Positions 3,946 to 48,590 of a stretch of DNA of 64,000 nt are shown one piece after another. Positions within the stretch are counted from its first letter, which is position 1. The number at the start of each line of letters is the position of its first letter. The stretch spans positions 19,592,001 through 19,656,000 of the forward strand of contig OX597842.1 in assembly GCA_951406725.2 (NCBI GenBank), in the 5' to 3' direction. Position numbers and translations under genes: made by a program. The notes beneath the pieces are model-generated. The model had not been told where the DNA came from. It was given only the letters and a program-made list of their open reading frames with translations, and made no database searches. The DNA comes from Octopus vulgaris. Its lineage: Eukaryota.

Positions 3946-4194
3946 ATAATGGTACACTCAATGTAAGCGTTACTCTACTGATTGAAATACCAAACATAAA
4001 AAGACCGACCGTTTGGAAATTCAACAATTATAAATACGAATGTGATACGACATGCGCTAACAGCCCCGAATACAAAGTGACGCAGGATGGAGATATATCG
4101 ACTTTTTGGATCCGAAATGTAATTAAGGAACGATTGACTTGGAAATTTGAAGACGATAATTTGGAATCATCACAATTTGATTTGAAGATACACA
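3946..4194 (+). CDS. Exon: divergent Ig-like domain 1 of a single-pass membrane protein (5' end of gene not found)
   Basis: tttatttcag| acceptor and |gtaagg donor; 249 bp, phase 1-1, stop-free: DNGTLNVSVTLLIEI...TVWKF...YECDTTC...ISTFWIRNV...LTWKF...FDLKIH; paralogous to exon 7845-8093. Confidence 0.85.
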
Positions 4195-4236
4195 GTAAGG
4201 AAAATGATTTATAATATTAATAATCCTTTCTACTAA

Positions 4237-4832
4237 GGCAGCAAGATGGCAGAAACATTAGTACGCCGGGCAAAATGCTTAGCAGTATTTTGTCTGCCGT
4301 TACGTTCTGAGTTCAAAGTCTGCCGAGGTCGACTTTGCCTTTCATCCTCTTGAGGTCGATAAATTAAGTACCAGTTATGCACTGGGGTCGATATAATCGA
4401 CTTAATCCGTTTGTCTGTCCTTGTTTGTCCCCTGTGTGCTTAGCCCCTTGTGGGTAGTAAAGAAATAGGTATTTTGTCTGCCGCTACGTTCTGAGTTCAA
4501 ATTCCGCTGAGGTCGACTTTGCCTTTCATCCTTTCGGGGTCGATAAATAAGTACCAGTTACGCACTGGGGTCGATGTAATCAACTTAATCCGTTTGTCCG
4601 TCCTTGTTTGGCCTCTCTGTGTTTAGCCCCTTGTGGGCAGTAAAGAAATAGGTATTTATATTCTGAGTTCAAATTCCGCTGAGATCGACTTTGCCTTTCA
4701 TCATTTCGGGGTCAATTAAATAAGTACCAGTTACGCACTGGGGTCGATATAATCGACTTAATCCGTTTGTCTGTCCTTGTTTGTCCTCTCTGTGTGTAGC
4801 CCCTTGTGGGTAGTAAAGAAATAGGTATTTCA
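4237..4832 (+). repeat. Tandem trimer of the ~183-bp SINE unit
   Basis: Same unit as 1740-2612, preceded by head ggcagcaagatggcagaaacattagtacgccgg. Confidence 0.88.
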
Positions 4833-5359
4833 TCTATCTCTGTCACACACAGACAGAAAGAGAGAGAAATCAACAGAAAGAGTTGAGCTTTTAACAAATT
4901 TCCATAGGAAGTGGTTATCCGAAGTTTTAGACATTTTTTCTTCAGGGAACAAGACTAAAATAACGAGAAATACGGAAGAGATTAACATCCTATAAGTTAG
5001 AAAGAAAACTGATTGTTTTTATTTAATTTCACTCCTGTCAACTTCTTCCTGTACAAGGACTCTCTCCGAAAAGTTGGATTTTCCACTCACCATGGTCATT
5101 TCGCCAGACACTTTCCATTCATTACAAGTAGACAAGAGACGTCTTTCCAATGCAGACCATCACCAATGTCTTTGAATTCTGTGAAGGCATTCAACCACAT
5201 GTTCAATGCATTCACTCAAACTGCCGCTGTATATAATGTGTAATTCTATTTACAAATGATAATTATTATTATTTAATTATTCTAACATAAATTGCAATCA
5301 ATCTTGTTGATTAAATGTAAAATCTGAAAATGAAAAATTTTTGTTTTCTTCTTTTTCAG

Positions 5360-5398
5360 GTTTGGCAAGAAGAGAAAGTTACAATATTACTCAAAGTG
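5360..5398 (+). CDS. 39-bp linker micro-exon (SLARRESYNITQS) of the Ig-like gene
   Basis: Long polypyrimidine ttttcttctttttcag| acceptor, |gtaaat donor, phase 1-1, in frame between the two domain exons; contains NIT sequon. Confidence 0.65.
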
Positions 5399-5547
5399 GT
5401 AAATGGATCAACAAACCTTTTTCTCCTTTTAAACTAGAAATTGTCTTTTCAATTCCGTTTCTTTACTTAACTCAGTTTTTAGCCACTTTTTTTTTAAAAA
5501 ACTTTTTCCAACCAGATCAATTTCATTTAACATCACAAAAAAAAAAT

Positions 5548-5850
5548 TACAAGCATGGAAAAATGGACGTTAGAATGTTGTTGATGATGATGACGAAGAC
5601 GATTGATGATGCAATTGATGATGATTGATTGACGATGATTGATGATGATGATGATTGATGATTGATGATGATTGATGAATGATGATGATTGTTGATGATG
5701 ATGATGATTGATGATGATGACGATTGATGATGCAATTGATGATGATGGATTGACGATGATTGATGATTGATGATGATGATGATTGAGGATGAGGATGATT
5801 GAGGATGATTGAGGATGATGATGATTGATGCTGATGATTGATGGTGATTG
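5548..5850 (+). repeat. Retroposon tail followed by degenerate (GAT/GATT)n microsatellite
   Basis: caagcatggaaaaatggacgttagaatgttg then (gat)n; similar at 9709-10040. Confidence 0.85.
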
Positions 5851-6489
5851 AGTTGGATAATTATTAAGGATCCGACAGGCTGCAGGACTTTGACAAGGTC
5901 CAATGACTGAGGAGAGGGTGAGATAGCTGAAGGTAGAGAAAGGCTTCTATTTCTTTCTCTTAACTCCTAGTTTTTTGCCATTTTCTTTTGACTTTTTACC
6001 AATCGACTCAATTTTATTTAAGATCACAAAACTATAACCATCATCAAGTAATGGCCTCCTTCGATGCTGGCATCTGTTGGATAATTATTAAGGGTCCATC
6101 AGGCTGCAAGACTTTGTAGAAGCTCCAATGGTTGAGGATAGGGAGAGATAACTGAAGGCAGAGAAAGGATGTGACCAGTGAAGATAGTGCAGGAAAAGAA
6201 GAAGGGATAATGGAAATAAGGGATGGAGTTGTTCTGGCAGGATGGGAGGGAAATAAATGGCAATGGAAAGAAAATGGTGTGGAGTAATATGTGACGCTTC
6301 TGCTTCCAAATGAATGCAGCCCTTGATTAATGCCAGAGACAGATGAGTGATGGAGAACTGGGTGTTAAAGGGAAAGAGATGTGGGGAATGCTTGAGGAGG
6401 CAGAAGAATGGTTTACGAGCATAAACAGAATGTATTTAGGACATCATTTTTTGCTGTGATTGACAGCAAAAGATGATGTCTCAAGCATT

Positions 6490-7590
6490 GTGTTTTGTCA
6501 ATCATCCCAGTCTTTTGTCATCTCCTCCAACCGGCTCAGCATCTTGAGATCAGCCTTCACCACTTTGTCCCATGTCTTCCTGGGTCTCCCTCTTCAACAA
6601 GTTCTTTCCACTTAAAGCACCTTTTTAAACAGCTGATCCCATACATATGTCCCAACCAGTGCTGTCCCCTTTTCTGTACACTACCTCCGTTTCCTCTTTT
6701 GCCTAACTTTTCTTTTGATGCCTTTCTTTTGTATGTACACTGACATTGCACATCCAAAAGAACCAACTAACTTTATTCCTCTCTATTCTTTGTATGTTTT
6801 CTGCATTTAGGGCCCATCTCTCACTATAATGTAGCATTGCTGTTCATATACAAGCATTGTGGAGGCACATGGCCTAGTGGTTAGAGCAGCGGACTTGCAG
6901 TCGAGGGATCATGGGTTCGAATCTCGGACCGGGCAATGTGTGTGTTTATGAGTGAAACACCTAAACTCCACGCGGCTCCGGCAGAAGGTAATGGCGAACT
7001 TCTGCTGACTCTTTCGCCACAACTTTCTCTTACTCTTTCCTCCTGCATCTTGCAGCTCACCTGCGTCGGACTGGTGTCCCATCCAGATGGGGAACCTATA
7101 CGTCAAGGAAACTGGGAAACTGGCCCTTATGAGCCAGGCATGGCTCGAGAAGGATCAAACAAAAAAAGAAAAATATACAAGCATCATACAACGAGCCTTT
7201 CACTCTGAGAGAACTTTTGTTGCCCAATCTCCAAGCTTCCTCAGAGACCACCAAATCATGTCAAAAGCTTTCTCCAGGTCAACGAATACCAAGTGCAATG
7301 ATTTACTTTTAGCTAAAAACATCTCTTGCAGTTGTTTTACTAAGAAGATGACATCAATAGTCCTTCTTCCTGGCAGAAAACCAAACTGCATCTCATCTAG
7401 TTTAATTCTGTTTTTAATTAATTAGGCTTTAACTCTCTCTCTAACTTTCTTGACCTGGTCCACCAATTTGAAAGTATCTCCTTTACGCTTGTAACATCTG
7501 ACTACAATGCTGCTACATCAGTTGTTAATGTGACACTTTTCTGTACAACATGATTACATCTATGGTGACTTTGTTGTATCCTACTCTGCA
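6490..7590 (-). mobile_element. Decayed RTE-like LINE RT fragments, interrupted by a SINE
   Basis: MQFGFLPGRRTIDVIFLVKQLQEMFLAKSKSLHLVFVDLEKAFD (7200-7391); WLGH...PGRHGTKW C-terminal remnants. Confidence 0.8.
6859..7172 (+). mobile_element. tRNA-derived SINE with target-site duplication
   Basis: A box tggcctagtggtt, B box gggttcgaatct, A-rich tail; 12-bp TSD atatacaagcat at 6846-6857 and 7173-7184. Confidence 0.88.
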
Positions 7591-7844
7591 CAACCTTCGT
7601 AAACAAAAGGCTCGTTTATATGGTGTGATTTCTTTCCAGTCCACTAGGTAAAACATATCCAGGTTCTTTGTTGCTCAATAGATTGGGATATTAGGACCAG
7701 AAGAGTGTCCAGTTATGCACAAAGAAAACTCTGCTCCCAAACACGGAAATGTAGGTGTTAAAATGATGATGATGAAAAAAAGAAACCCTGGAATCTTTCA
7801 TATGGGAAACCAGTCACTAATGTTGATTTATCTTTTTACTTTAG

Positions 7845-8093
7845 AACCAGTTGCATTAGGACACAATGTTATACTTCATATTGAAGTAGCCGAGATGACA
7901 GGAATTGTTTTCTGGAAAAATGACAACGGTAGATATGAATGTAACCCGACTTGTTATAATTATGGTAACTATGAAGTTACACAAGTTGGTAGCATATCTA
8001 CTCTTTTGATCCGAAATGTCACCAAACAAGATTTGACTTGGCGTTTTTGTGACTTGTATCTCTGCTCTGGAAATTATACTTTAGTGAAAAAAG
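7845..8093 (+). CDS. Exon: divergent Ig-like domain 2
   Basis: tttactttag| and |gtaagg; 249 bp, phase 1-1: EPVALGHNVILHIEV...VFWKN...YECNPTC...ISTLLIRNVTKQDLTWRFCDLYLC...YTLVKK; same length and motifs as domain 1. Confidence 0.88.
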
Positions 8094-8127
8094 GTAAGGA
8101 AATAACTTTTGCTAAAAAAAAAAAAAA

Positions 8128-8168
<41 letters not shown>

Positions 8169-8179
8169 TAATAATAATA

Positions 8180-8517
8180 ATCATCATCATCATCTTCGTT
8201 TAACATCCGTTCTCCTTGCTTGCATGGGTTGGACGGTTCAACCGGGGATCTGGGAAGCCAGAAGGCTGCACCAGGCCCAGTCTGATCTGGCAGTGTTTTT
8301 ACAGCTGGATGCCCTTCCTAACGCCAACCACTCCGTGAGTGTAGTGGGTGCTTTTTACGAGCCACAGGTGCCAGGTGAGGCTGGCAACGGCCACGATTGG
8401 ATTGGTGCATTTTACGTGCCACCGGCACAGGTGCCAGGTGAGGCTGGCAACGGCCACGATCGGATTGGTGCATTTTACGTGCCACCGGCACGGAAGCCAG
8501 TCAAGGCTTCCGGCACG

Positions 8518-8520
<3 letters not shown>
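8180..8520 (-). mobile_element. RTE-tail-type SINE/LINE 3' end; other copies at 10281-10476(+), 12738-12885, 42733-42980, 52846-53280
   Basis: catcatc-gtttaac-tccg...gcatgggttggacggtt...gcccttcctaacgccaaccactc with internal tandem subrepeats. Confidence 0.8.
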
Positions 8521-8552
<32 letters not shown>

Positions 8553-8931
8553 GTTCTTTCTAACTTTGGTACAAGGTCATGAATTTCATGTGGAAGTGGT
8601 TCTTTGATTACATTAATTTGGGTATATTTAGCCGGTCCTTTATTTCATCAACCCCAAAGGGATGAAAGGCAAAGAGCTGACCTTTGCAGTATTTGAACCC
8701 AGGAGTGAAAGAGTCAGAAGAAATTCCACTGAACTTTTTTTTCTGGTGCAGCAACAATTCTCCCAGCTCACAACTATTGTTTGGAACATAAGGAAGGTTT
8801 TCTTTAAATCTCTTCAAAACTGAGGATTTGTACAATAGAAACAAAACCAATTTTAAGCAGGATGGTATGAAAAGGGTTAAACCTGGCTGATGTTACTATT
8901 TTTTTTAAATTAAAAACAAAAAGTATATGAT

Positions 8932-9120
8932 GTATATTTGCCATTTAAATATGGCTAACCCCTAAGGATGGATGCTACTGTAGTTTGTAGCCCCAGCAGG
9001 ACACCTTCTCCACCTGGCTATAGACACACTGGCTACAGCTGGAGGAGGTGTCCTCCTGGGGCTACAAACTACAGTAGCATCCACCCTTAGGGGTTTGCCA
9101 TATTTAAATGGCAAATATAC
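8932..9120. repeat. Long near-perfect inverted repeat (~80-bp arms)
   Basis: gtatatttgccatttaaatatggc...gccatatttaaatggcaaatatac; arms pair through ggatgctactgtagtttgtagcccc / ggggctacaaactacagtagcatcc. Confidence 0.92.
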
Positions 9121-9209
9121 GTCACGATGTGTTGCAGCTACTGTTTATAACTCGCTCTGAGATTTATTACTGCTTAAAAAGTATATGTTTTGCTGTTCAT
9201 CTTTTGCAG

Positions 9210-9533
9210 GTGAAAAAACAGAAACAACGACAACAAAAGATGCTGAAACAACGACAACAAAAGATGCTGAAACAACGACAACAAAAGATGCTGAAACAAT
9301 TTACTATTCATCTTTTGCAGGTGATAAAACAGAAACGACGACAACAAAAGATGCTGAAACAACCACAACAAAAGATGCTGAAACTAATGGATCAGAAAAC
9401 AGCTTACCAACCTATGCCATCGTCATCATTTGTATACTTGGATTTGTAGCCATCGTTATCATAGCCTTCGTTGTCATATTCAAATGCAAGGCATTCATTA
9501 AGGTCAAAACTTCTATCACCCAGTGCGTATCTG
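9210..9533 (+). CDS. Exon: Thr-rich stalk (ETTTTKDA repeats) + transmembrane helix + basic juxtamembrane segment
   Basis: cttttgcag| acceptor (second in-frame acceptor at 9321), |gtaaga donor, phase 1-1; TM LPTYAIVIICILGFVAIVIIAFVVIF followed by KCK. Confidence 0.85.
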
Positions 9534-10490
9534 GTAAGAAAGACTAGAACTGATATTGGCCAACCTTACTACTGACTTTCACTGATCCGGGTAGAATTGT
9601 TGGTTTTTGCATAAACTACCTCCATATTTTATGTAACATCATCATCATCATCGTTGGTTTGGCATCACCTTTTCCAAAACTCTGCTCCATCTTACACTTG
9701 CTTGTCCAATACAAGCATGGAAAAGTGGACGTTAGAATGTTGTCGTTGTTGATGATGACAATTGATGAGGATGATTGATGTTGATTGATGATGTTGATTG
9801 ATGAGGATGATGACGCGATTGATGATGATTGATGTTGATTGATGATGATTGATGTTAATTGATGAGGATGACGCGATTGATGATGAGTGATTGTGATTGA
9901 TGATGAGTGATGGTGATTGATGATGAGTGATGGTGATTGATGATGGGTGATGGTGATTGATGATGTTGATTGGTGATTGATGATGCTTGATGATGATTGA
10001 TATTGATTGATGATTGATGAGGATGATGCGATTGATGATGACTTCCACTGAAATGCTCTGCTTTTTTCAATCATTTTTGAAAATGGTGAAAAATTTCGTA
10101 AAATAGCTTTGCCATTATTAATCTGGTGTTTGGAACATAAATTAACATATTAGACATAAATTAACATAAATTAAACATAAATTAACATAGATTAAACATA
10201 AATTAACAGGAAATTCTGAATGGAAGGTTTTAATTTGGATCAGTTTAACCTGTTTGTTACCATAATTGTTGTCCTTTACAGGTGCCGGTGCCAAGTAAAA
10301 TGCATTTGAGCTGGTAGCACGTAAAAAGCATACAGCATATTCTATAGAGTGGCTGGTGCTAGGAAGGGCATCCGGTTGTTGGAACCATGCGACAACAGGC
10401 AATTGGAGTCGGGACAGTTCCACAGGTGACCAGATCCTGTCAAACCGTCCAACCCATGCCAGCATGGTAGACGAACTTTGAGCTATTATG

Positions 10491-17110: not shown

Positions 17111-17181
17111 TATTTCTAAATCTGTTAACGAGAGACACTCAGTAACAGTACTTTAAAGCAAAGCTTATTTGCCAACATAAT

Positions 17182-19651
<2,470 letters not shown>

Positions 19652-22591: not shown

Positions 22592-24221
22592 CTTATTATA
22601 AAAGGCAGATTTTATCTGCCTCCCTTTGTCTCTTATAGAAATCTACAATATAGGATTTCTTCAATTACAATTTACCTAGCATTTTTAAGAGTAGAATGCA
22701 TCGGGTCTTGCCAGGTCCACTTTTTAAAATTTCAACCCCAATTAAGCAAAATTTAGAGAAAACTCACATTGTGGTGTATGAGTCAAATGCTTTTCTTAGT
22801 GTGGGATACAGCATACGCACACGCACACACATAGTGTGCAACGAATAAAGTGAAAGTAATTCACTGTGTGTGTGTTGACAGGTAGACAATAGAATGCGTT
22901 GGCGATGTAATATTTGTTTCTGCCTATGACGCTGATAGATACATGAGTAAAATGTATGGGAAGCTAAGAGATAAGAGTGAGTGAAAATGTTCTTGGAAGA
23001 GAGTAAATAGCGAGAGAGTGATTTGAGGAAGACTTTACATTAAATAACCGTAGTGGCTTGTCAAATGAAGAGGAGTGAGAGGGTACTGGAGGAAATAGGG
23101 TGAGTGGGGAAGATGGCCCCTAGCAACCACACCTTTTAAGATAGGGATTTCTAAGGTAGCCCACGAGCATCGTCACCTCATTCTACATGTCCCTGCAAAT
23201 TTTGGAGCGAATCGGACGGGATAAAGTTATCTCTAAGAAACAGAAAGATCGCCCAAAAGTGTATATAGATATTTAAATGTATTTATATATTCATCTATAC
23301 ACACATGTATGTATAATGTGCGTGTATATATTTCCATAGAGGTAACCATTCAATCCATACAAAGTTTTTTAGGACGAAAATATTTATATATAAAAGAAAG
23401 GTTGTGTGTCTGTCTACTCCGATTTAGATTCCTAACTACTCCCACATTTTGCGATGCAGTTTAACCAAAACCGGGTATCTTATAGTCGTGATTCATATCG
23501 AGCCCTTCTGGGTATTAGCGCGTCTACGATGAGTCTATGATTTTACAAATAATTTACCATCATTTTTTCCATTTTAATGCATATTTTTAAATGAAGGGAA
23601 GTAACTCTCAAACTTAACACCAATATGCGTGCTCATATGCGACGTAATATCACATCAGCAGCATTTCCTCACACCCTCCTTGCACTTGGAGAAGGCAAAA
23701 TACCAGGGGATGAAATTGTTATATTGCCATCGATTCCATTTGTAACATTGTTAAGACGCCTTCTGATCTCAGAGATGCAGTGTTCCCAGATCTACAAGCT
23801 AATTATCAGAATATGGATTGGATTGGCAAAAAGGCTATACTGGCCCCGAGGAATAAAACTGTTCACCATATTAATGATGAAATGCTAAAACTCATTCCTG
23901 GGGAAGTCTATGTATATCAGTCTATCGATACAACTCCTGACCCAAAGGACGTCATCAACTATCCAATAGAGGTACTCAATTCCTTTGAGCACCCCGGACT
24001 ACCACCACACTTTCTCAAACATAAAGTTGGTGCCCCTATAATGCTCATCAGAAATTTGGTTCCCCCAAAACAATGCAATGGCACACGTTTGATCGTTAAG
24101 TCCTTATCTCCCACCGTAAACTTATATCAATATTTGCCTGAATAATCATCATAATTCAGTGCAATCATTAACAGTACTTTCAGGCAATTCAGCCCCGAGC
24201 AACGCCGGGCAATTCTGCTAG
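22591..24221 (+). mobile_element. Defective/composite Helitron with PIF1-helicase fragment (~23610-24118)
   Basis: KAILAPRN...INYPIEVLNSFEHPGLPPHFLKHKVGAPIMLIRNL...CNGTRL; 3' hairpin cccgagcaacgccggg + CTAG (24218-24221) before T; TC-type 5' end at 22591 and a second 5'-like end near 23381. Confidence 0.85.
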
Positions 24222-25881: not shown

Positions 25882-28800
25882 ACTTAGCGGTTCGGCAAAA
25901 GAGACTGATGGAATAAGTACTGGGCTTACAAAGAATAAGTTCCGGGGTCGATTTGCTCGACTAAAGGCGGTGCTCCAGCATGGCCACAGTCAAAGGACTG
26001 AAACAAATAAGAGTAGCCTTAGCGGTTCGGCAAAAGCGACCGATAGAATAAGTACTGGGCTTACAAAGAATAAGTCCCGGGGTCGATTTGCTCGGCTAAA
26101 GGCGGTGCTCCAGCATGGCCGCAGTCAAATGACTGAAACAAATAAGAGTAGCCTTAGCGGTTCGGCAAAAGCGACCGATAGAATAAGTACTGGGCTTACA
26201 AAGAAAAAGTCCCGGGGTCGATTTGCTCGGCTAAAGGCGGTGCTCCAGCATGGCCGCAGTCAAATGACTGAAACAAATAAGAGTAGCCTTAGCGGTTCGG
26301 CAAAAGCGACCGATAGAATAAGTACTGGGCTTACAAAGAATAAGTCCCGGGGTCGATTTGCTTGGCAAAAGGCGGTGCTCCAGCATGGCCGCAGTCAAAT
26401 GACTGAAACAAATAAGAGTAGCCTTAGCGGTTCGGCAAAAGCGACCGATAGAATAAGTACTGGGCTTACAAAGAATAAGTCCCGGGGTCGATTTGCTCGG
26501 CTAAAGGCGGTGCTCCAGCAAGGCCACAGTCAAATGACTGAAACAAATAAGAGTAGCCTTAGCGGTTCGGCAAAAGCGACCGATAGAATAAGTACTGGGC
26601 TTACAAAGAATAAGTCCCGGGGTCGATTTGCTCGACTAAAGGCGGTGCTCCAGCATGGCCGCAGTCAAATGACTGAAACAAGTAAAAAGGTAAACTTAGC
26701 GGTTCGGCAAAAGCGACCGATAGAATAAGTACTGGGCTTACAAAGAATAAGTCCCGGGGTCGATTTGCTCAACAACAAATGACTGAAACAAATGAGAGTA
26801 GCCTTAGCGGTTCGGCAAAAGTGACCGATAGAATAAGTACTGGGCTTACAAAGAATAAGTCCCGGGGTCGATTTGCTCGGCTAAAGGCGGTGCTCCAGCA
26901 TGCCCACAGTCAAATGACTGAAACAAATAAGAGTAGCCTTAGCGGTTCGGCAAAAGCGACCGATAGAATAAGTACTGGGCTTACAAAGAATAAGTCCCGG
27001 GGTCGATTTGCTCGGCTAAAGGCGGTGCTCCAGCATGGCCGCAGTCAAATGACTGAAACAAATAAGAGTAGCCTTAGCGGTTCGGCAAAAGCGACCGATA
27101 GAATAAGTACTGGGCTTACAAAGAATAAGTCCCGGGGTCGATTTGCTAGGCTAAAGGCGGTGCTCCAGCATGGCCACAGTCTAATGACTGAAACAAATAA
27201 GAGTAGCCTTAGCGGTTCGGCAAAAGCGACCGATAGAATAAGTACTGGGCTTACAAAGAATAAGTCCCGGGGTCGATTTGCTCGGCTAAAGGCGGTGCTC
27301 CAGCATGGCCACAGTCAAATGACTGAAACAAGTAAAAGAGTAAACTTAGCGGTTTGGCAAAAGCGACCGATAGAATAAGTACTGGGCTTACAAAGAATAA
27401 GTCCCGGGGTCGATTTGCTCGGCTAAAGGCGGTGCTCCAGCATGCCCACAGTCAAATGACTGAAACAAATAAGAGTAGCTTTAGCGGTTCGGCAAAAGCG
27501 ACCGATAGAATAAGTACTGGGCTTACAAAGAATAATTCCCGGGGTCGATTTGCTCGGCTAAAGGTGGTGCTCCAGCATGGCCACAGTCAAATGACTGAAA
27601 CAAATAAGAGTAGCCGTAGCGGTTCGGCAAAAGCGACAGATAGAATAAGTACAGGGCTTACAAAGAATAAGTCCTGGGGTCGATTTGCTCAGCTAAAGGC
27701 GGTGCTCCAGCATGGCCACAGTCAAATGACTGAAACAAGTAAAAGAGTAAACTTAGCGGTTTGGCAAAAGCGACCGATAGAATAAGTACTGGGCTTACAA
27801 AGAATAAGTCCCGGGTCGATTTGCTCGGCTAAAGGTGGTGCTCCAGCATGGCCACAGTCAAATGACTGAAACAAATAAGAGTAGCCTTAGCGGTTCGGCA
27901 AAAGCGACCGATAGAATAAGTACTGGGCTTACAAAGAATAAGTCCTGGGGTCGATTTGCTCGGCTAAAGGCGGTGCTCCAGCATGGCCACAGTCAAATGA
28001 CTGAAACAAATAAGAGTAGCCTTAGCGGTTCGGCAAAAGCGACCGATAGAATAAGTACTGGGCTTACAAAGAATAAGTCCCGGGGTCGATTTGCTCGGCT
28101 AAAGGCGGTGCTCCAGCATGGCCACAGTCAAATGACTGAAACAAGTAAAAGAGTAAACTTAGCGGTTCGGCAAAAGCGACCGATAGAATAAGTACTGGGC
28201 TTACAAAGAATAAGTCCTGGGGTCGATTGGCTCGACTAAGAGGCGGTGCTCCAGCATGGCCACAGTCAAATGACTGAAACAAGTAAAAGAGTAAACTTAG
28301 CGGTTTGGCAAAAGCGACCGATAGAATAAGTACTGGGCTTACAAAGAATAAGTCCCGGGGTCGATTTGCTCGGCTAAAGGCGGTGCTCCAGCATGCCCAC
28401 AGTCAAATGACTGAAACAAATAAGAGTAGCCTTAGCGGTTCGGCAAAAGCGACCGATAGAATAAGTACTGCGCTTACAAAGAATAATTCCCGGGGTCGAT
28501 TTGCTCGGCTAAAGGTGGTGCTCCAGCATGGCCACAGTCAAATGACTGAAACAAATAAGAGTAGCCGTAGCGGTTCGGCAAAAGCGACAGATAGAATAAG
28601 TACAGGGCTTACAAAGAATAAGTCCTGGGGTCGATTTGCTCGGCTAAAGGCGGTGCTCCAGCATGGCCACAGTCAAATGACTGAAACAAGTAAAAGAGTA
28701 AACTTAGCGGTTTGGCAAAAGCGACCGATAGAATAAGTACTGGGCTTACAAAGAATAAGTCCCGGGGTCGATTTGCTCGGCTAAAGGTGGTGCTCCAGCA

Positions 28801-30195
28801 TGGCCACAGTCAAATGACTGAAACAAATAAGAGTAGCCTTAGCGGTTCGGCAAAAGCGACCGATAGAATAAGTACTGGGCTTACAAAGAATAAGTCCCGG
28901 GGTCGATTTGCTCGGCTAAAGGCGGTGCTCCAGCATGGCCACAGTCAAATGACTGAAACAAATAAGAGTAGCCTTAGCGGTTCGGCAAAAGCGACCGATA
29001 GAATAAGTACTGGGCTTACAAAGAATAAGTCCCGGGTCGATTTGCTCGGCTAAAGGCGGTGCTCCAGCATGGCCACAGTCAAATGACTGAAACAAGTAAA
29101 AGAGTAAACTTAGCGGTTTGGCAAAAGCGACCGATAGAATAAGTACTGGGCTTACAAAGAATAAGTCCCGGGGTCGATTTGCTCGGCTAAAGGCGGTGCT
29201 CCAGCATGCCCACAGTCAAATGACTGAAACAAATAAGAGTAGCCTTAGCGGTTCGGCAAAAGCGACCGATAGAATAAGTACTGCGCTTACAAAGAATAAT
29301 TCCCGGGGTCGATTTGCTCGGCTAAAGGTGGTGCTCCAGCATGGCCACAGTCAAATGACTGAAACAAATAAGAGTAGCCGTAGCGGTTCGGCAAAAGCGA
29401 CAGATAGAATAAGTACAGGGCTTACAAAGAATAAGTCCTGGGGTCGATTTGCTCGGCTAAAGGCGGTGCTCCAGCATGGCCACAGTCAAATGACTGAAAC
29501 AAGTAAAAGAGTAAACTTAGCGGTTTGGCAAAAGCGACCGATAGAATAAGTACTGGGCTTACAAAGAATAAGTCCCGGGGTCGATTTGCTCGGCTAAAGG
29601 TGGTGCTCCAGCATGGCCACAGTCAAATGACTGAAACAAATAAGAGTAGCCTTAGCGGTTCGGCAAAAGCGACCGATAGAATAAGTACTGGGCTTACAAA
29701 GAATAAGTCCCGGGGTCGATTTGCTCGGCTAAAGGCGGTGCTCCAGCATGGCCACAGTCAAATGACTGAAACAAATAAGAGTAGCCTTAGCGGTTCGGCA
29801 AAAGCGACCGATAGAATAAGTACTGGGCTTACAAAGAATAAGTCCCGGGGTCGATTTGCTCGGCTAAAGGCGGTGCTCCAGCATGGCCACAGTCAAATGA
29901 CTGAAACAAATAAGAGTAGCCTTAGCGGTTCGGCAAAAGCGACCGATAGAATAAGTACTGGGCTTACAAAGAATAAGTCCCGGCGTCGATTTGCTCGGCT
30001 AAAGGCGGTGCTCCAGCATGGCCACAGTCAAATGACTGAAACAAATAAGAGTAGCCTTAGCGGTTCGGCAAAAGCGACCGATAGAATAAGTACTGGGCTT
30101 ACAAAGAATAAGTCCCGGGGTCGATTTGCTCGGCTAAAGGCGGTGCTCCAGCATGGCCGCAGTCAAATGACTGAAACAAGTAAAAGAGTAAAGAG
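25882..30195 (+). repeat. SINE-derived satellite: ~32 tandem copies of a 135/137-bp SINE 3' module
   Basis: cttagcggttcggcaaaagcgaccg...tgactgaaacaaataagagtagc at 135-bp period (26018, 26153...), preceded by a normal SINE head at 25605-25880. Confidence 0.97.
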
Positions 30196-31689: not shown

Positions 31690-31841
31690 CACACACACAC
31701 GTACATATATAATACATACACACATACACACATACATATATATATATACATACATACACATATATACATACACACATACATATATACATACGTTACATAA
31801 ATGCAGACATAAATACATACATACATACATATATGCATACA

Positions 31842-31873
<32 letters not shown>

Positions 31874-33158
31874 AACGTACGTACATACATACATACATAC
31901 ATGCACACATGCATGCATACATATATACATACATACATATTTACATACGTTCGTACATACATACATACATAAATACATACATACATACATACATATATAC
32001 ATACATACATACATGCAAACATACATACATACATACATACATACATACATACATACATACACACACATTAATACATACATATATACATATATACATACAT
32101 ACATACGTACATACATACATACATACATATATACATACGTACGTACATATATACATACATGCACACATGAATACATACATTCATACATATATACATACGT
32201 TCGTACATACATACATACATACATACATACGTGCATACATACATTCATACATACATACATACATACATACATACATACATGCATGCGTACGTACATACAT
32301 ACAGACGTACATACATACAGACATACATACATACATATATACATGCATACATAAATACATACATACATACATACATACATACATACATACATAAATACAT
32401 ACGTACATATATACATACATACATACATATATACATTCGTACATACATATATACATATACAAATTCGTAAATACATACATACATACATACATGCATGCAT
32501 GCATACATACATACATACATACATACATAAATTCATACATACATACATACATACATACATACATACATACATACATACATACATACATGAATGCATGCAT
32601 ATATGCATATATACATACATAAATACATTCATATATACATACATAAATACATTCATACATACATACATATATATATACATATGTACATATATACATACAT
32701 ACATAGATATATACATGCGTACGTACAGACTTACAAACATACATATATATATACATATATATATACATACGTATATACATACGTACGTACATACATACAT
32801 ATATAGATACGTACGTACATACATACATACATATATACATATATACATATGTACGTACATACATACATACATACATACATACATACATACATACATACAT
32901 ACATACATAGATACATACATACATATCTACATGCATACGTACATACATATATACATAAATACATACATACATATATACATACGTACATAAATACATATAA
33001 ACATACATACATATATACATACGTCCGTACATACATACATATATACCTATATACATATATACATATATACATACGTACGTACATACATACATACATATAT
33101 ACATACGTCCAGACATACATACATACATACACACATACATATATACATGCATACATAC

Positions 33159-33213
<55 letters not shown>

Positions 33214-33869
33214 AGTACATACGTACGTACATACATACATATATACACACGTACGTACATACAGACATACATACATATATGCATACGTACGCACATACAT
33301 ACAAATATTCATACATTCATATATATATACATACATACATACAGACATAAATGTATACATACATACATACATACATACATACATACATACATACATGCAT
33401 GAATGCATGCATATATGCATACATAAATACATTCATATATGCATACATAAATACATTCATACGTACATTCATACATACATACATACATACATACATACAT
33501 ACATACATACATACAAACATTCATACATACATATATACATACATACATACATACAGACATACATGCATGCATGCATACATATATACATACATACATACAT
33601 ATATACATTCATACATACATACGTACATTCATATATACATATATACATACATAAATACATTCATACATACATACAATCATACATACATGCATACATACAT
33701 ACATACATACATACATACGGACGTACATACATATATACATACATTACATACATACAGACATACATATATACATACATACATACATATGGATACATAATAA
33801 AATATATACATATATGTATGCAAACATACATACATACATACATACATATATGCATGCGTACATAAATAC

Positions 33870-33906
<37 letters not shown>

Positions 33907-34404
33907 CATACGTATATACATACATACATATATAAATATCTACGTACATACATATGTACATACATACATACATACATACATACAATATCCATACATACAT
34001 ATATACATACATACATATGTACATTCATTCATACATGCATACATGCATACATATATACATACATATATATATATATATATATACCTACATACTTACATGC
34101 CTACATACATATGTACATATATACATACATTCATATATACATACATACATGCATACATACATACATATAAACATACATAGATATATACATATATACATAC
34201 ATACAAGAATACATACATATATACATATATACATATATACATACATAAATAGATATAAATACATTCATACGTACATACCTACATACATACATAAATACAT
34301 AAATACGTAAGTACATGCATACATACATACACACATACTTACATACATATATATACATACATACATACATACATATATACATACATACATACATATATTC
34401 ATAC

Positions 34405-34439
<35 letters not shown>

Positions 34440-37400
34440 CATACATGCAAACACATATACATGTATACATACATACATACAAACATACACATATATATAC
34501 ATACGTACGTACATACATACATACATACATACATACATGCATGACTGCATATATACATACATACATACATACATATATATATACATACATGCATGCATAC
34601 ATACATACATTCATACATACATACATACATACATATATACATACAAACATTACATGCATACATAGATACATTCACACATACATACACACATGCATACATA
34701 CATGCATATGTATATACATACATACATGCATGCATGTATGCATATATACACACATACATACATACATACAAAAGTACATATATACATCCGTACGTACGTA
34801 CATACATATATACATACATACATTCGTACGTACATACATACATGCATGCATACATATATACATACATCCATACATTCATACAGACATACATGCAGGCATG
34901 CATGCATACATACATATATACATACATCCATACATTCATATATATGTATGCATGCATACATATATACATACATCCATACATTCACACAGACATGCATGCA
35001 TGCATGAATGCATACATACATACATACATACATGCATGCATACATGGATACATACATATATACATACATACATATATCCATACATACATACATGCATACA
35101 TACTTATATACTTACATATTTACATAGATACGTACATGCATACATACATATATAAATACATGCATACATGCATGCATACATACATACACACATACATACA
35201 TACATATACACATGCATACATACATGCATACATACATATATATATATATATATATACATATATGCTTGCATACATACATACAGACATACATACATATATA
35301 CATTCATGCATACATAGATACATTCACACATACATACACACATGCATACATACATGCATATGTTCATACATACATACATGCATGCATTTATGAATATATA
35401 CACACATACATACATACAAAAGTACATTCATACATACATACATACATACATATATACATTCGTACGTCCGTGCATACATACATACATACATTCACACATA
35501 CATACATACAGGCATGCATACATAGATACATACATACATACACACATGTATACATACATGGAATCATACATACATACATATATACATACATACATGCACG
35601 CATATATACATACATACACACTTATATACTTACATATTTACATAACTACATGCATGCATACATACATATATACATACGTACGTACCTACATAGATACACA
35701 CATGCATACATACATATATGCATGCAGTATGCATGCATGCATACATACATACATATATACATTAATATATACATACATACATATATACATACATGCATGC
35801 ATACATAGATACATACATACATACATACACACATAGATGGATACACACATATATACATATATACATGCATGCATACATACATACATACATACTTATATAA
35901 ATACATATTTACATAAATACATGCATGCATACATACATATATACATACGTACATACAAAGATACATACATGTATACATACATATATAAATATATACATAC
36001 ATGCATGTATGCATACATACATACACACATACATACATATACACATGCATACATACATATATATATATACATACATACATGCATACATACATACGCACAT
36101 ACATACATACATACATACATACATACATACATACATACATACATACATGCATGCATACAAACATATATACATGCGGACGTACTTAAATTCATACGTATAT
36201 ACATACGTACCTACATACATACATACATACATGCACACATACATACATACATACATGCAGACGTATATACATACACATATACATACAAATATAGGTAGAT
36301 GCATAGATACATGCCTACATACATACATACATACATACATACTATACATACATGCATTCATACATACATACCTACGTATATACATACGTACGTGCATTCA
36401 TACATACATACATGCATACACACATACATACATACATACATACCTAAGTACATACATACATACGCACGTAGTTACATACATACATGCGTATATACATATA
36501 TACATAATTACTTACATACATACATACATACATACATCCATCCATCCATCCATACATACATACATATATACATATATACATATTATATACATACGTACAG
36601 ACAAACATATATGCTTGCATACAATACATACATACATACATACATACATACATACATACATACATACATACATACATACATACATACATACATACATACA
36701 TACATACATTGATACATACATATATACATACGTTCGTACATACATACATATATATATATACATATGTACATATATACATACATACATATATATATACATG
36801 CGTAGGTACAGACATACAAACATACGAACATATATAAATACATATATACATACATACATATATACATACATACATATATACATACGTATATACATACGTA
36901 CGTTCATACATACATATATAGATACGTACGTACATACATACATACATACATATATACATATATACATACGTACGTACGTACATACATACATACATACATA
37001 CATACATGCATACATACATTTATACATGCGTACGTACATACATACATATATACATAAATACATACATATATACATGCGTACGTACATACATACATATAAA
37101 CATACATACATACATATATACATACGTCCGTACATACATACATACATACATGTATACCTATATACATATATACATATATTCATACGTACGTACATATATA
37201 CATACATATATACATATATACATACGTACGTACGTACATTCATACATACATACTTGCATACATACATTTATACATGCGTACGTACATACATACATATATA
37301 CATAAATACATACATACATATATACATGCGTACGTACATACATACATATAAACATACATACATACATATATACCTATATACATATATACATATATTCATA

Positions 37401-37497
37401 CGTACGTACATACATACATACATACATATATACATACGTCCAGACATACATACATACACACATACATATATACATGCACACATACTTACATACATAC

Positions 37498-37528
<31 letters not shown>

Positions 37529-38572
37529 AGTACATACATATGTACATACATACATATATACACACGTACGTAGATATGTACATACATACATATATACACA
37601 CGTACGTAGATACATACATAAATACATATATGCATACGTACGTACATACATACATGCATACATGCATACATACATACATGCCTATATACATACATACATG
37701 CATACATACATAACTGCATACAAACATACATATATTCATGCATACATACATATATGTATACATACAAACATATATACATACATATATACATACGTACATA
37801 TATACATACATACATTCAGATATACATACATACATACATATATACATAGATACATATATACATACATACGTACATACATACATACTTACATACATACATA
37901 TATACATATTACATACGTACATACATACATACATACGTGCGTACATACATAGATACATACATACATGCATGTATGCATATATACATACATACATACACAC
38001 ATATATACGTACATACATACACACATACGTACGTACGTACATACATACATAAATACATATATACGTACATACATACATTCATGCATGCATACATACACAC
38101 ATACATTCATACGTACATACATACATACATACATACATACATACATACATACATACATACATACATGCATACAGACATACATATATACATACATAGATAT
38201 ATACATATATACATACATAGATATATACATACATATATACATACATACATACATATATATATACATACATATATACATACATACATACATACATGCATGC
38301 ATACATTCATACATATATACTTATATACATACCTACATACTTACATACACACATACATACTGCAGATATTCATACATACATACATATATACATGCATACA
38401 TACATACATACATACATACATACATACATACATACATGCATACATAAACACATATATACAAACATACATACATACGTACTTAAACACATATATTCAAACA
38501 TACGTACATCCATACATACATACATACATGTATATATATACATATGTATATATCTACACGTATATATACATA
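31690..38572. repeat. ~6.9-kb degenerate (TACA)n array
   Basis: Direct inspection; source of dozens of spurious HTYI/MYVC ORFs. Confidence 0.98.
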
Positions 38573-48271: not shown

Positions 48272-48329
48272 TTCAACCAGTTTTGTTTTCTCCTATCATG
48301 AGCGAATCTAATAACACGTTATTTGGAAG
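48272..48329 (+). CDS. Possible orphan exon (xQPVLFSPIMSESNNTLFG), phase 1-2
   Basis: tttaatttcag| and AAG|gtgaga sites; only one open frame. Confidence 0.3.
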
Positions 48330-48490: not shown

Positions 48491-48590
48491 NNNNNNNNNN
48501 NNNNNNNNNNNNNNNNNNNNNNNNNNNNNNNNNNNNNNNNNNNNNNNNNNNNNNNNNNNNNNNNNNNNNNNNNNNNNNNNNNNNNNNNNN
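48491..48590. other. Scaffold gap (100 N)
   Basis: Run of N. Confidence 1.

Follow-up and report, generated by a model that had tools for sequence, protein, structure and literature searches.

A 64,000-nucleotide (nt) stretch of Octopus vulgaris contig OX597842.1 (hereafter the window) carries, on its plus strand, part of a gene for a predicted cell-surface protein composed of immunoglobulin (Ig)-like domains. Four exons are present, at 3946-4194 (249 nt), 5360-5398 (39 nt), 7845-8093 (249 nt) and 9210-9533 (324 nt). All four have AG/GT ends, a length divisible by 3 and phase 1-1, and they form a single open frame when joined, while the two 249-nt body exons are 45% identical to each other (E 1e-21). 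The exons match exactly the O. vulgaris models CAI9743580.1 (385 amino acids, aa) and CAI9743579.1 (443 aa), and near-exactly LOC115230628 of O. sinensis. Since they are identical to annotated proteins, and since the joint 4194->5360 is spliced, these exons are not a product of chance, and the initial annotation of four phase-1 exons splicing in frame was borne out. This is a real spliced gene, already predicted and annotated without characterisation, and no further copies of its family occur within the 64-kb window.

Three studies supplied the four sequencing runs used to follow splicing; the status of these runs as RNA is a guess in the records. The junction check proposed in the initial annotation recovered the GT..AG joint 4194->5360 in all four runs. 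In run X1, a 349-nt contig matches 7844-8091 with no differences from its letter 102 onwards; its first 101 letters offer space for exactly the 39-nt mini-exon and the end of the preceding body exon, and its depth equals that of the 4194->5360 joint. From this geometry and the equal depth we infer the second junction (5398->7845). A 235-nt contig covers 9319-9553, again with no differences, and continues past the donor at 9534 to the stop codon at 9545-9547. Its start adjoins the 349-nt contig in spliced coordinates, a mere hint of an 8093->9321 junction.

The matching annotated proteins consist of a leader and three Ig-like domains, and not of the two domains first proposed. Residues 1-131, comprising the leader and domain 1, have no exact match in the window, and their exons are therefore placed upstream of it. 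The body exon at 3946-4194, supported by the annotated models and by splicing of its 3' joint in 4/4 runs, encodes strands A'-G of domain 2 with CxxxC codons at 4041/4053. The mini-exon at 5360-5398, delimited by splicing and structural alignment, encodes a short linker and the A strand of domain 3, the body of which (7845-8093; annotated models and the X1 contig) carries CxxxC codons at 7940/7952 and a cysteine pair in the F strand and FG loop at 8048/8063. The last exon begins with a Thr-rich stalk of 24-nt repeats with a duplicated exon start (9210-9412; from the sequence and the annotated isoforms), followed by a predicted transmembrane (TM) helix of 23 aa (9413-9481) and, according to the run contig, a 21-aa cytoplasmic tail (9482-9547) that stops at TAG 9545-9547. 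The annotated models and the TM prediction support the type I topology, with its TM segment and Thr-rich stalk, that was initially suggested.

The signal-peptide and tail exons had been left without a confident assignment. The tail is now accounted for, as reading through the unused or alternative donor at 9534 reaches the stop and no exon beyond the TM exon is needed; the leader lies upstream of the window. The tail contains two cysteines but lacks tyrosine. A T>C change at 9545, present in runs X2 and X5, converts TAG to CAG, making the tail two residues longer, and this CAG form is the one annotated for O. sinensis. CAI9743579.1 has an alternative tail exon at 48272-48329 on the plus strand, given by model prediction alone, and an assembly gap of 100 N (48491-48590) lies directly past it. 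The stalk also exists in more than one form: a second in-frame acceptor at 9321 places 28 residues before the TM-flanking motif, compared with 65 from the acceptor at 9210, and the annotated isoforms use both lengths. Additional in-frame AGs occur beyond these two acceptors. The tandem duplication at 9210-9320 takes in the upstream acceptor, with the consequence that letters once belonging to the intron form part of the coding sequence of the long isoform. Pfam matches to TMEM154 and the like on the stalk and TM segment were rejected as compositional.

Structural alignments of domain 3 start at residue 219, inside the mini-exon, and run onto residues 1-5 of V domains. Because the 39-nt exon supplies the A strand, the domains are 96 aa long and split over two exons, and neither the 83-aa domains of the initial annotation nor its view of the 39-nt exon as a mere linker was upheld. 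Among the 31 family models parsed, an exon of the mini-exon type stands ahead of nearly every domain body. One and the same mini-exon peptide can stand directly after the leader or between two domains, depending on the O. sinensis isoform; as the peptide is shared between these two sites, a two-exon cassette, a mini-exon plus a body exon, was likely duplicated in tandem to give the multi-domain members.

The AlphaFold2 model of the 385-aa protein (P0002) contains three beta-sandwiches, with a mean pLDDT (predicted local distance difference test) score of 74.6 and values of 80-95 in the domain cores. Searches with Foldseek and VIA-align returned Ig folds throughout the top rows, at Z-scores of 10-11 (about 11) and with no clear winner. 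Among these matches are tandem I-set proteins, antibody and T-cell receptor V domains, nectin-1 D1, CD8, CD58 (Z 10.7, root-mean-square deviation 2.4, 88 residues aligned) and CEACAM7-N (Z 10.0, root-mean-square deviation 2.5, 87 aligned). A paralogue with one domain, which shares 87% identity with domain 3, gave like matches (Z 10.7). The C'' region appears in the DSSP assignment of the models as short bridges alone. Sequence comparison was less telling. In a Pfam scan of single exons, domain 3 matched ig below threshold (E 0.04) and the domain 2 exon had no Ig match, while I-set was found in 17/36 family members at E<=0.1, a weak preference for that set. No PDB sequence matched the family profile at E<=1; the best single-sequence match was CD79b (E 0.11). 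In the ESM Atlas, the closest clusters, at 0.94, consist of mollusc proteins without a name, and the named neighbours are V-set/I-set clusters at 0.90. The Ig fold proposed from the strand patterns is thus supported by the models and the structural searches, and a Greek-key beta-sandwich of V/I type is predicted, with a Trp-Ile-Phe-Trp core and peripheral disulfides holding it together.

The composition of this core was assessed in an alignment of 70 non-redundant domains out of 111, using as landmarks the eight V-set positions of Huene et al., as set out in the available text (PMC9546547). The B-F disulfide is absent, as initially claimed: the Cys23 position of the B strand holds Cys in 0/65 domains and Ile in 48/65, and the Cys104 position of the F strand holds Phe in 64/69 and Cys in 1/69. 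At the tyrosine corner (Tyr102), Trp is found in 66 of 69. The C-strand Trp41 is kept in 69/70 and the E-strand Leu89 in 57/69, the remainder being hydrophobic. At the Asp98 position Cys (35) outnumbers Asp (14 of 69), and the Arg75 column, the mapping of which is uncertain, has Arg in 3/70; the Arg75-Asp98 salt bridge is mostly lost. Both body exons also show the other strand motifs listed in the initial annotation. A 'DxGxYxC' expression matched 13/111 octopus domains, most likely through a C' strand motif, and was set aside. Absence of the B-F disulfide does not exclude membership of the Ig superfamily (IgSF), as known members lack it too.

Other cysteines occur in pairs. The first Cys of CxxxC is invariant and the second is present in 67/70 domains. 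An optional pair joining position W+2 of the C strand and the EF loop is complete in 33 domains, single in 6 + 2 and missing in 28; for the F/FG pair that occurs in domain 3 the figures are 10 complete, 2 + 3 single and 54 missing, both sets of counts being uncorrected for kinship. This covariation fits predicted disulfides, with the C'-C'' CxxxC bridge nearly everywhere and the other two in subsets. Residues of a putative binding face are likewise conserved (Arg 60/70, Pro 59/70, Glu 65/70, Asp 64/69), and we infer that these BC, C' and FG residues would form an exposed surface.

A profile search for relatives yielded 30 clusters, all from Octopus, and a full HMMER scan gave 41 representatives, of which the ten that were source-checked include six from Octopus, two from Argonauta and one from Haliotis. 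Long bacterial repeat proteins among the HMMER matches were dropped as a result of repeat-summing, as was an obscurin-like protein, a generic Ig match that served, with one other, as a control. No squid or cuttlefish protein is among the named matches, although 16 HMMER matches had no source look-up and absence is unproven. In O. vulgaris, 11 loci each have a source sequence of 34.56 Mb; in O. sinensis, 10 loci each have one of 21.33 Mb, with nine more on 35-85-kb scaffolds that may include haplotypes; and in O. bimaculoides three loci each have one of 11.99 Mb. One gene cluster on one chromosome per species is therefore likely, a feature absent from the initial annotation.

Family models carry one to six domains, and several are leaderless duplicates of domain 3 plus TM. 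Of 101 models, 53 end in a TM segment and tail and 25 in a hydrophobic stretch, while 23 have no TM. Among 24 distinct tails there is no immunoreceptor tyrosine-based activation motif (ITAM); motifs resembling the corresponding inhibitory motif (ITIM) occur in two, both of multi-TM proteins, and some tails carry YxxPhi. A separate branch combines a V with a C-like domain, some members having several TM segments. Three Octopus proteins (P0053, P0075 and P0112) pair one V-like domain of the family with a C-like domain rich in cysteine, and have about three segments of hydrophobic residues; this type is conserved in three species on another chromosome and, by eye, has a CD47-like topology. Three Octopus species have preserved the open frame, the cysteine pairs and the order of the three domains, and at the window locus 7 of the 310 ectodomain residues are not shared between O. 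vulgaris and O. sinensis, domain 3 being identical.

All family records are labelled 'uncharacterized' or 'hypothetical', and neither sequence nor structure searches found a well-described orthologue, in agreement with the initial annotation. A literature search, with subscription papers outside its reach, found no published description of the family; octopus and cephalopod do not occur in the accessible portion of a 2025 review of invertebrate IgSF proteins (PMC11999971), and six family locus identifiers are absent from the searchable supplements of a brain atlas (PMC9712504). This octopod Ig-like receptor family has apparently not been described before.

Comparison of paralogues points to sequence exchange. 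CAI9743524.1 of O. vulgaris differs from its O. sinensis counterpart at 14/371 positions. Seven of these fall between residues 163 and 198 (shuffle p 0.005, for a segment picked once the data had been seen), and at each of the seven CAI9743524.1 has the residue of the window gene and of LOC115227428. The latter is 88% identical to the window gene in domain 2, as against 60% in domain 1 and 71% in domain 3, and in a domain tree (84 columns, rough support) its domains 1 and 2 pair with different partners. Domain 2 appears to have been exchanged between paralogues, chimeras of assembly or model being also possible. On a larger scale, 24 O. sinensis RefSeq models from five paralogous loci recombine 6 leaders, 9 mini-exon peptides, 11 bodies and 9 tails, and one leader with its mini-exon is common to three annotated loci. 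The mini-exon is doubled in two O. sinensis models and skipped in one isoform of the window gene's orthologue. Putative alternative starts onto shared exons appear in RefSeq isoforms of the paralogous O. sinensis loci, not of the window locus. This cassette mixing could stem from mis-mapping of short reads.

The description of the gene as lineage-specific holds in part: among source-checked matches the close family is confined to Octopus and Argonauta, but abalone proteins share the domain signature. In a Haliotis family, CxxxC is present in 29/29 domains and a W-x-hydrophobic-x-D F strand in 28/29, compared with 0/25 control I-set domains showing this abalone/octopus signature. An alignment of octopus and abalone profiles with hhalign gave E 1.8e-6, although a generic I-set control did better (E 1e-7), and one profile search is circular for abalone, as two abalone proteins were already in the profile. 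The Haliotis tandem Ig proteins (such as LOC124119024 and LOC124122840) resemble those of octopus in signature and in that many lie on one contig, but their domains add an A-G cysteine pair that the octopus family lacks. Common ancestry of the signature is plausible. In the Haliotis proteins P0094, P0101, P0102, P0107 and P0115-P0129, Ig-like domains of the CxxxC type stand in tandem on mucin stalks; many of these proteins are encoded on one contig per species, and some have tyrosine-rich tails.

The N domains of the CD2 and CEACAM families are V-type domains without a B-F disulfide. CD2/CD58/SLAM and CEACAM keep a DxGxY-type F strand, however, and are not known to have a CxxxC loop. CD58 and CEACAM7-N are among the structural matches, and some octopus relatives likewise combine a V with a C-like domain and have TM or hydrophobic-end variants, but homology in sequence to the CD2/SLAM and CEACAM families is not detectable (PDB, E<=1). 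In the available part of one source, those families are placed at the level of Amniota or Mammalia (PMC13262535), and the likeness is most likely convergent.

The Alr proteins of Hydractinia offer another parallel. According to the accessible text of one report (PMC9546547), they too form an invertebrate multigene cluster of single-pass proteins with one to three V/I-set folds lacking the B-F cysteines, and show new peripheral disulfides, alternative tails and pseudogene-like partial copies. The same text describes Alr domain 1 as mostly without the C-strand Trp, which octopus keeps in 69/70; an Fn3-like spacer, where octopus has a low-complexity Thr repeat stalk that is disordered in the model; one exon per Ig domain, whereas octopus places the A strand on its own 39-nt exon; and ITAM/ITIM tails, whereas octopus has no ITAM. 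No Alr protein is among the source-checked search matches, and the octopus family is analogous to Alr, not a member of it. Chelicerate sDscam and clustered protocadherins share tandem few-exon cassettes with alternative starts and splicing, as far as the available text goes (PMC4835542). sDscam, however, is built from canonical Dscam Ig/Fn3 domains and includes a constant region, while no constant signalling tail is evident in octopus, where cassette mixing is drawn from RefSeq models only; sDscam is an organisational analogue and nothing further. The mollusc VIgL proteins (FREP/CREP/GREP) also have divergent Ig domains that automated tools detect poorly, according to the portion of PMC9334734 available, but they join Ig to a lectin or fibrinogen domain, neither of which appears in the architecture or the Pfam scan of the octopus family.

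The window also holds repeats. About 32 tandem copies of a 135-nt unit, 95% alike and with long open frames running through them, occupy 25883-30183, and the unit resembles a dispersed repeat also found at 1200-1520. A head-to-tail dispersed repeat of 173-184 nt, abundant in the sequencing runs, lies at 1768-2607 and 4285-4830. Endonuclease/reverse transcriptase frames of the long interspersed nuclear element (LINE) type, recognised by eye and near-identical to each other, are found at 17146-18819 on the plus strand and 56561-59682 on the minus strand; a fragment at 23714-24145 resembles, by eye, a Pif1/Helitron helicase; and 31691-38529 is a 6.8-kb ACAT microsatellite.

As to function, we lean modestly towards a putative CD58/CEACAM-like adhesion or recognition ligand, a type I protein with three predicted Ig domains lacking the B-F disulfide. 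The conserved BC/C'/FG face of its N-terminal domains would engage, in trans, a counter-receptor carried by another cell, and that counter-receptor would most likely be another family member. The stalk, likely O-glycosylated and mucin-like, may set the distance from the membrane, with alternative acceptors tuning it. Because its tail has no tyrosine, the window member would anchor or present, acting as a ligand or adhesion partner rather than as a signalling receptor, and the family would diversify as the two-exon cassette is duplicated in tandem and paralogues exchange sequence. Eight N-glycosylation sequons speak for this assignment. Several points weigh against it: the first junction alone is listed as a joint, the second coming from contig geometry and the third being merely hinted at; the whole-model predicted template modelling score (pTM) is 0.33, and the domain arrangement is not fixed by the model; Z-scores are tied, within 1 Z, across V-set domains and titin I-set domains and do not single out CD58 or CEACAM; the clustering derives from equal source-sequence size and accession order rather than from coordinates; and strand order and covariation are the source of both the proposed disulfides and the supposed exposure of the binding face.

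An immune receptor or decoy binding pathogens or symbionts, acting on haemocytes or epithelia and evolving by birth and death under microbial pressure with tails of paired output, would account for the young multigene expansion with its leaderless domain 3 duplicates, for the exchange between paralogues, and for the mixed C-termini (53/25/23 of 101 models) with YxxPhi in some tails; CEACAMs bind microbes too, according to the available part of PMC13262535. Yet family members agree closely in the putative binding face, which is not hypervariable, no tail has an ITAM, and the ITIM-like motifs are confined to 2/24 tails, both multi-TM, which leaves this role possible but rather unlikely. More doubtful still is a combinatorial identity code of the Alr, sDscam or clustered-protocadherin kind, in which variant-specific homophilic binding would serve self/non-self or neuronal recognition. 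Neighbouring O. sinensis loci do share and recombine cassettes in their RefSeq isoforms, and clustered Ig genes without the disulfide perform allorecognition in Hydractinia (PMC9546547, available text), but the 7/310 ectodomain differences between O. vulgaris and O. sinensis are unlike the highly polymorphic Alr1/2, and mixing among near-identical repeats may be short-read mis-mapping. The family could, finally, be mostly neutral debris of segmental duplication around one or two functional glycoproteins, the window copy being transcribed and dispensable. The many domain 3-only models without a leader fit this, as does an X1 depth of about 2 on the exact copy, contig depth being a poor measure; with frame, cysteine pairs and domain order kept in three Octopus species and related genes in Argonauta, it is very improbable.

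A bolder proposal, which we consider quite unlikely, is an octopus Ig recognition complex: a chromosomal cluster of disulfide-swapped cassettes, mixed by gene conversion and by cross-locus splicing with independent choice of leader, mini-exon, body and tail, would generate a combinatorial surface code for self, kin or neurons. If true, it would add a third solution to those of Dscam and clustered protocadherins, and skipping or doubling of the mini-exon would produce strand-deficient or strand-donating domains with changed binding.

The preferred reading, a putative adhesion or recognition ligand, concerns a field in which the receptors for self/non-self and immune recognition in cephalopods are poorly known, and the family is a concrete candidate that domain annotation has missed. 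Its signature, with Trp for Tyr at the corner, Ile/Phe for the pin cysteines and the CxxxC loop, could be used in surveys of molluscs. Following Alr and CD2/CEACAM, the family is one more example of clustered Ig genes minus the core disulfide, and its A-strand mini-exon suggests how the multi-domain members likely originated, through reuse of a leader-flanking exon as an inter-domain linker.

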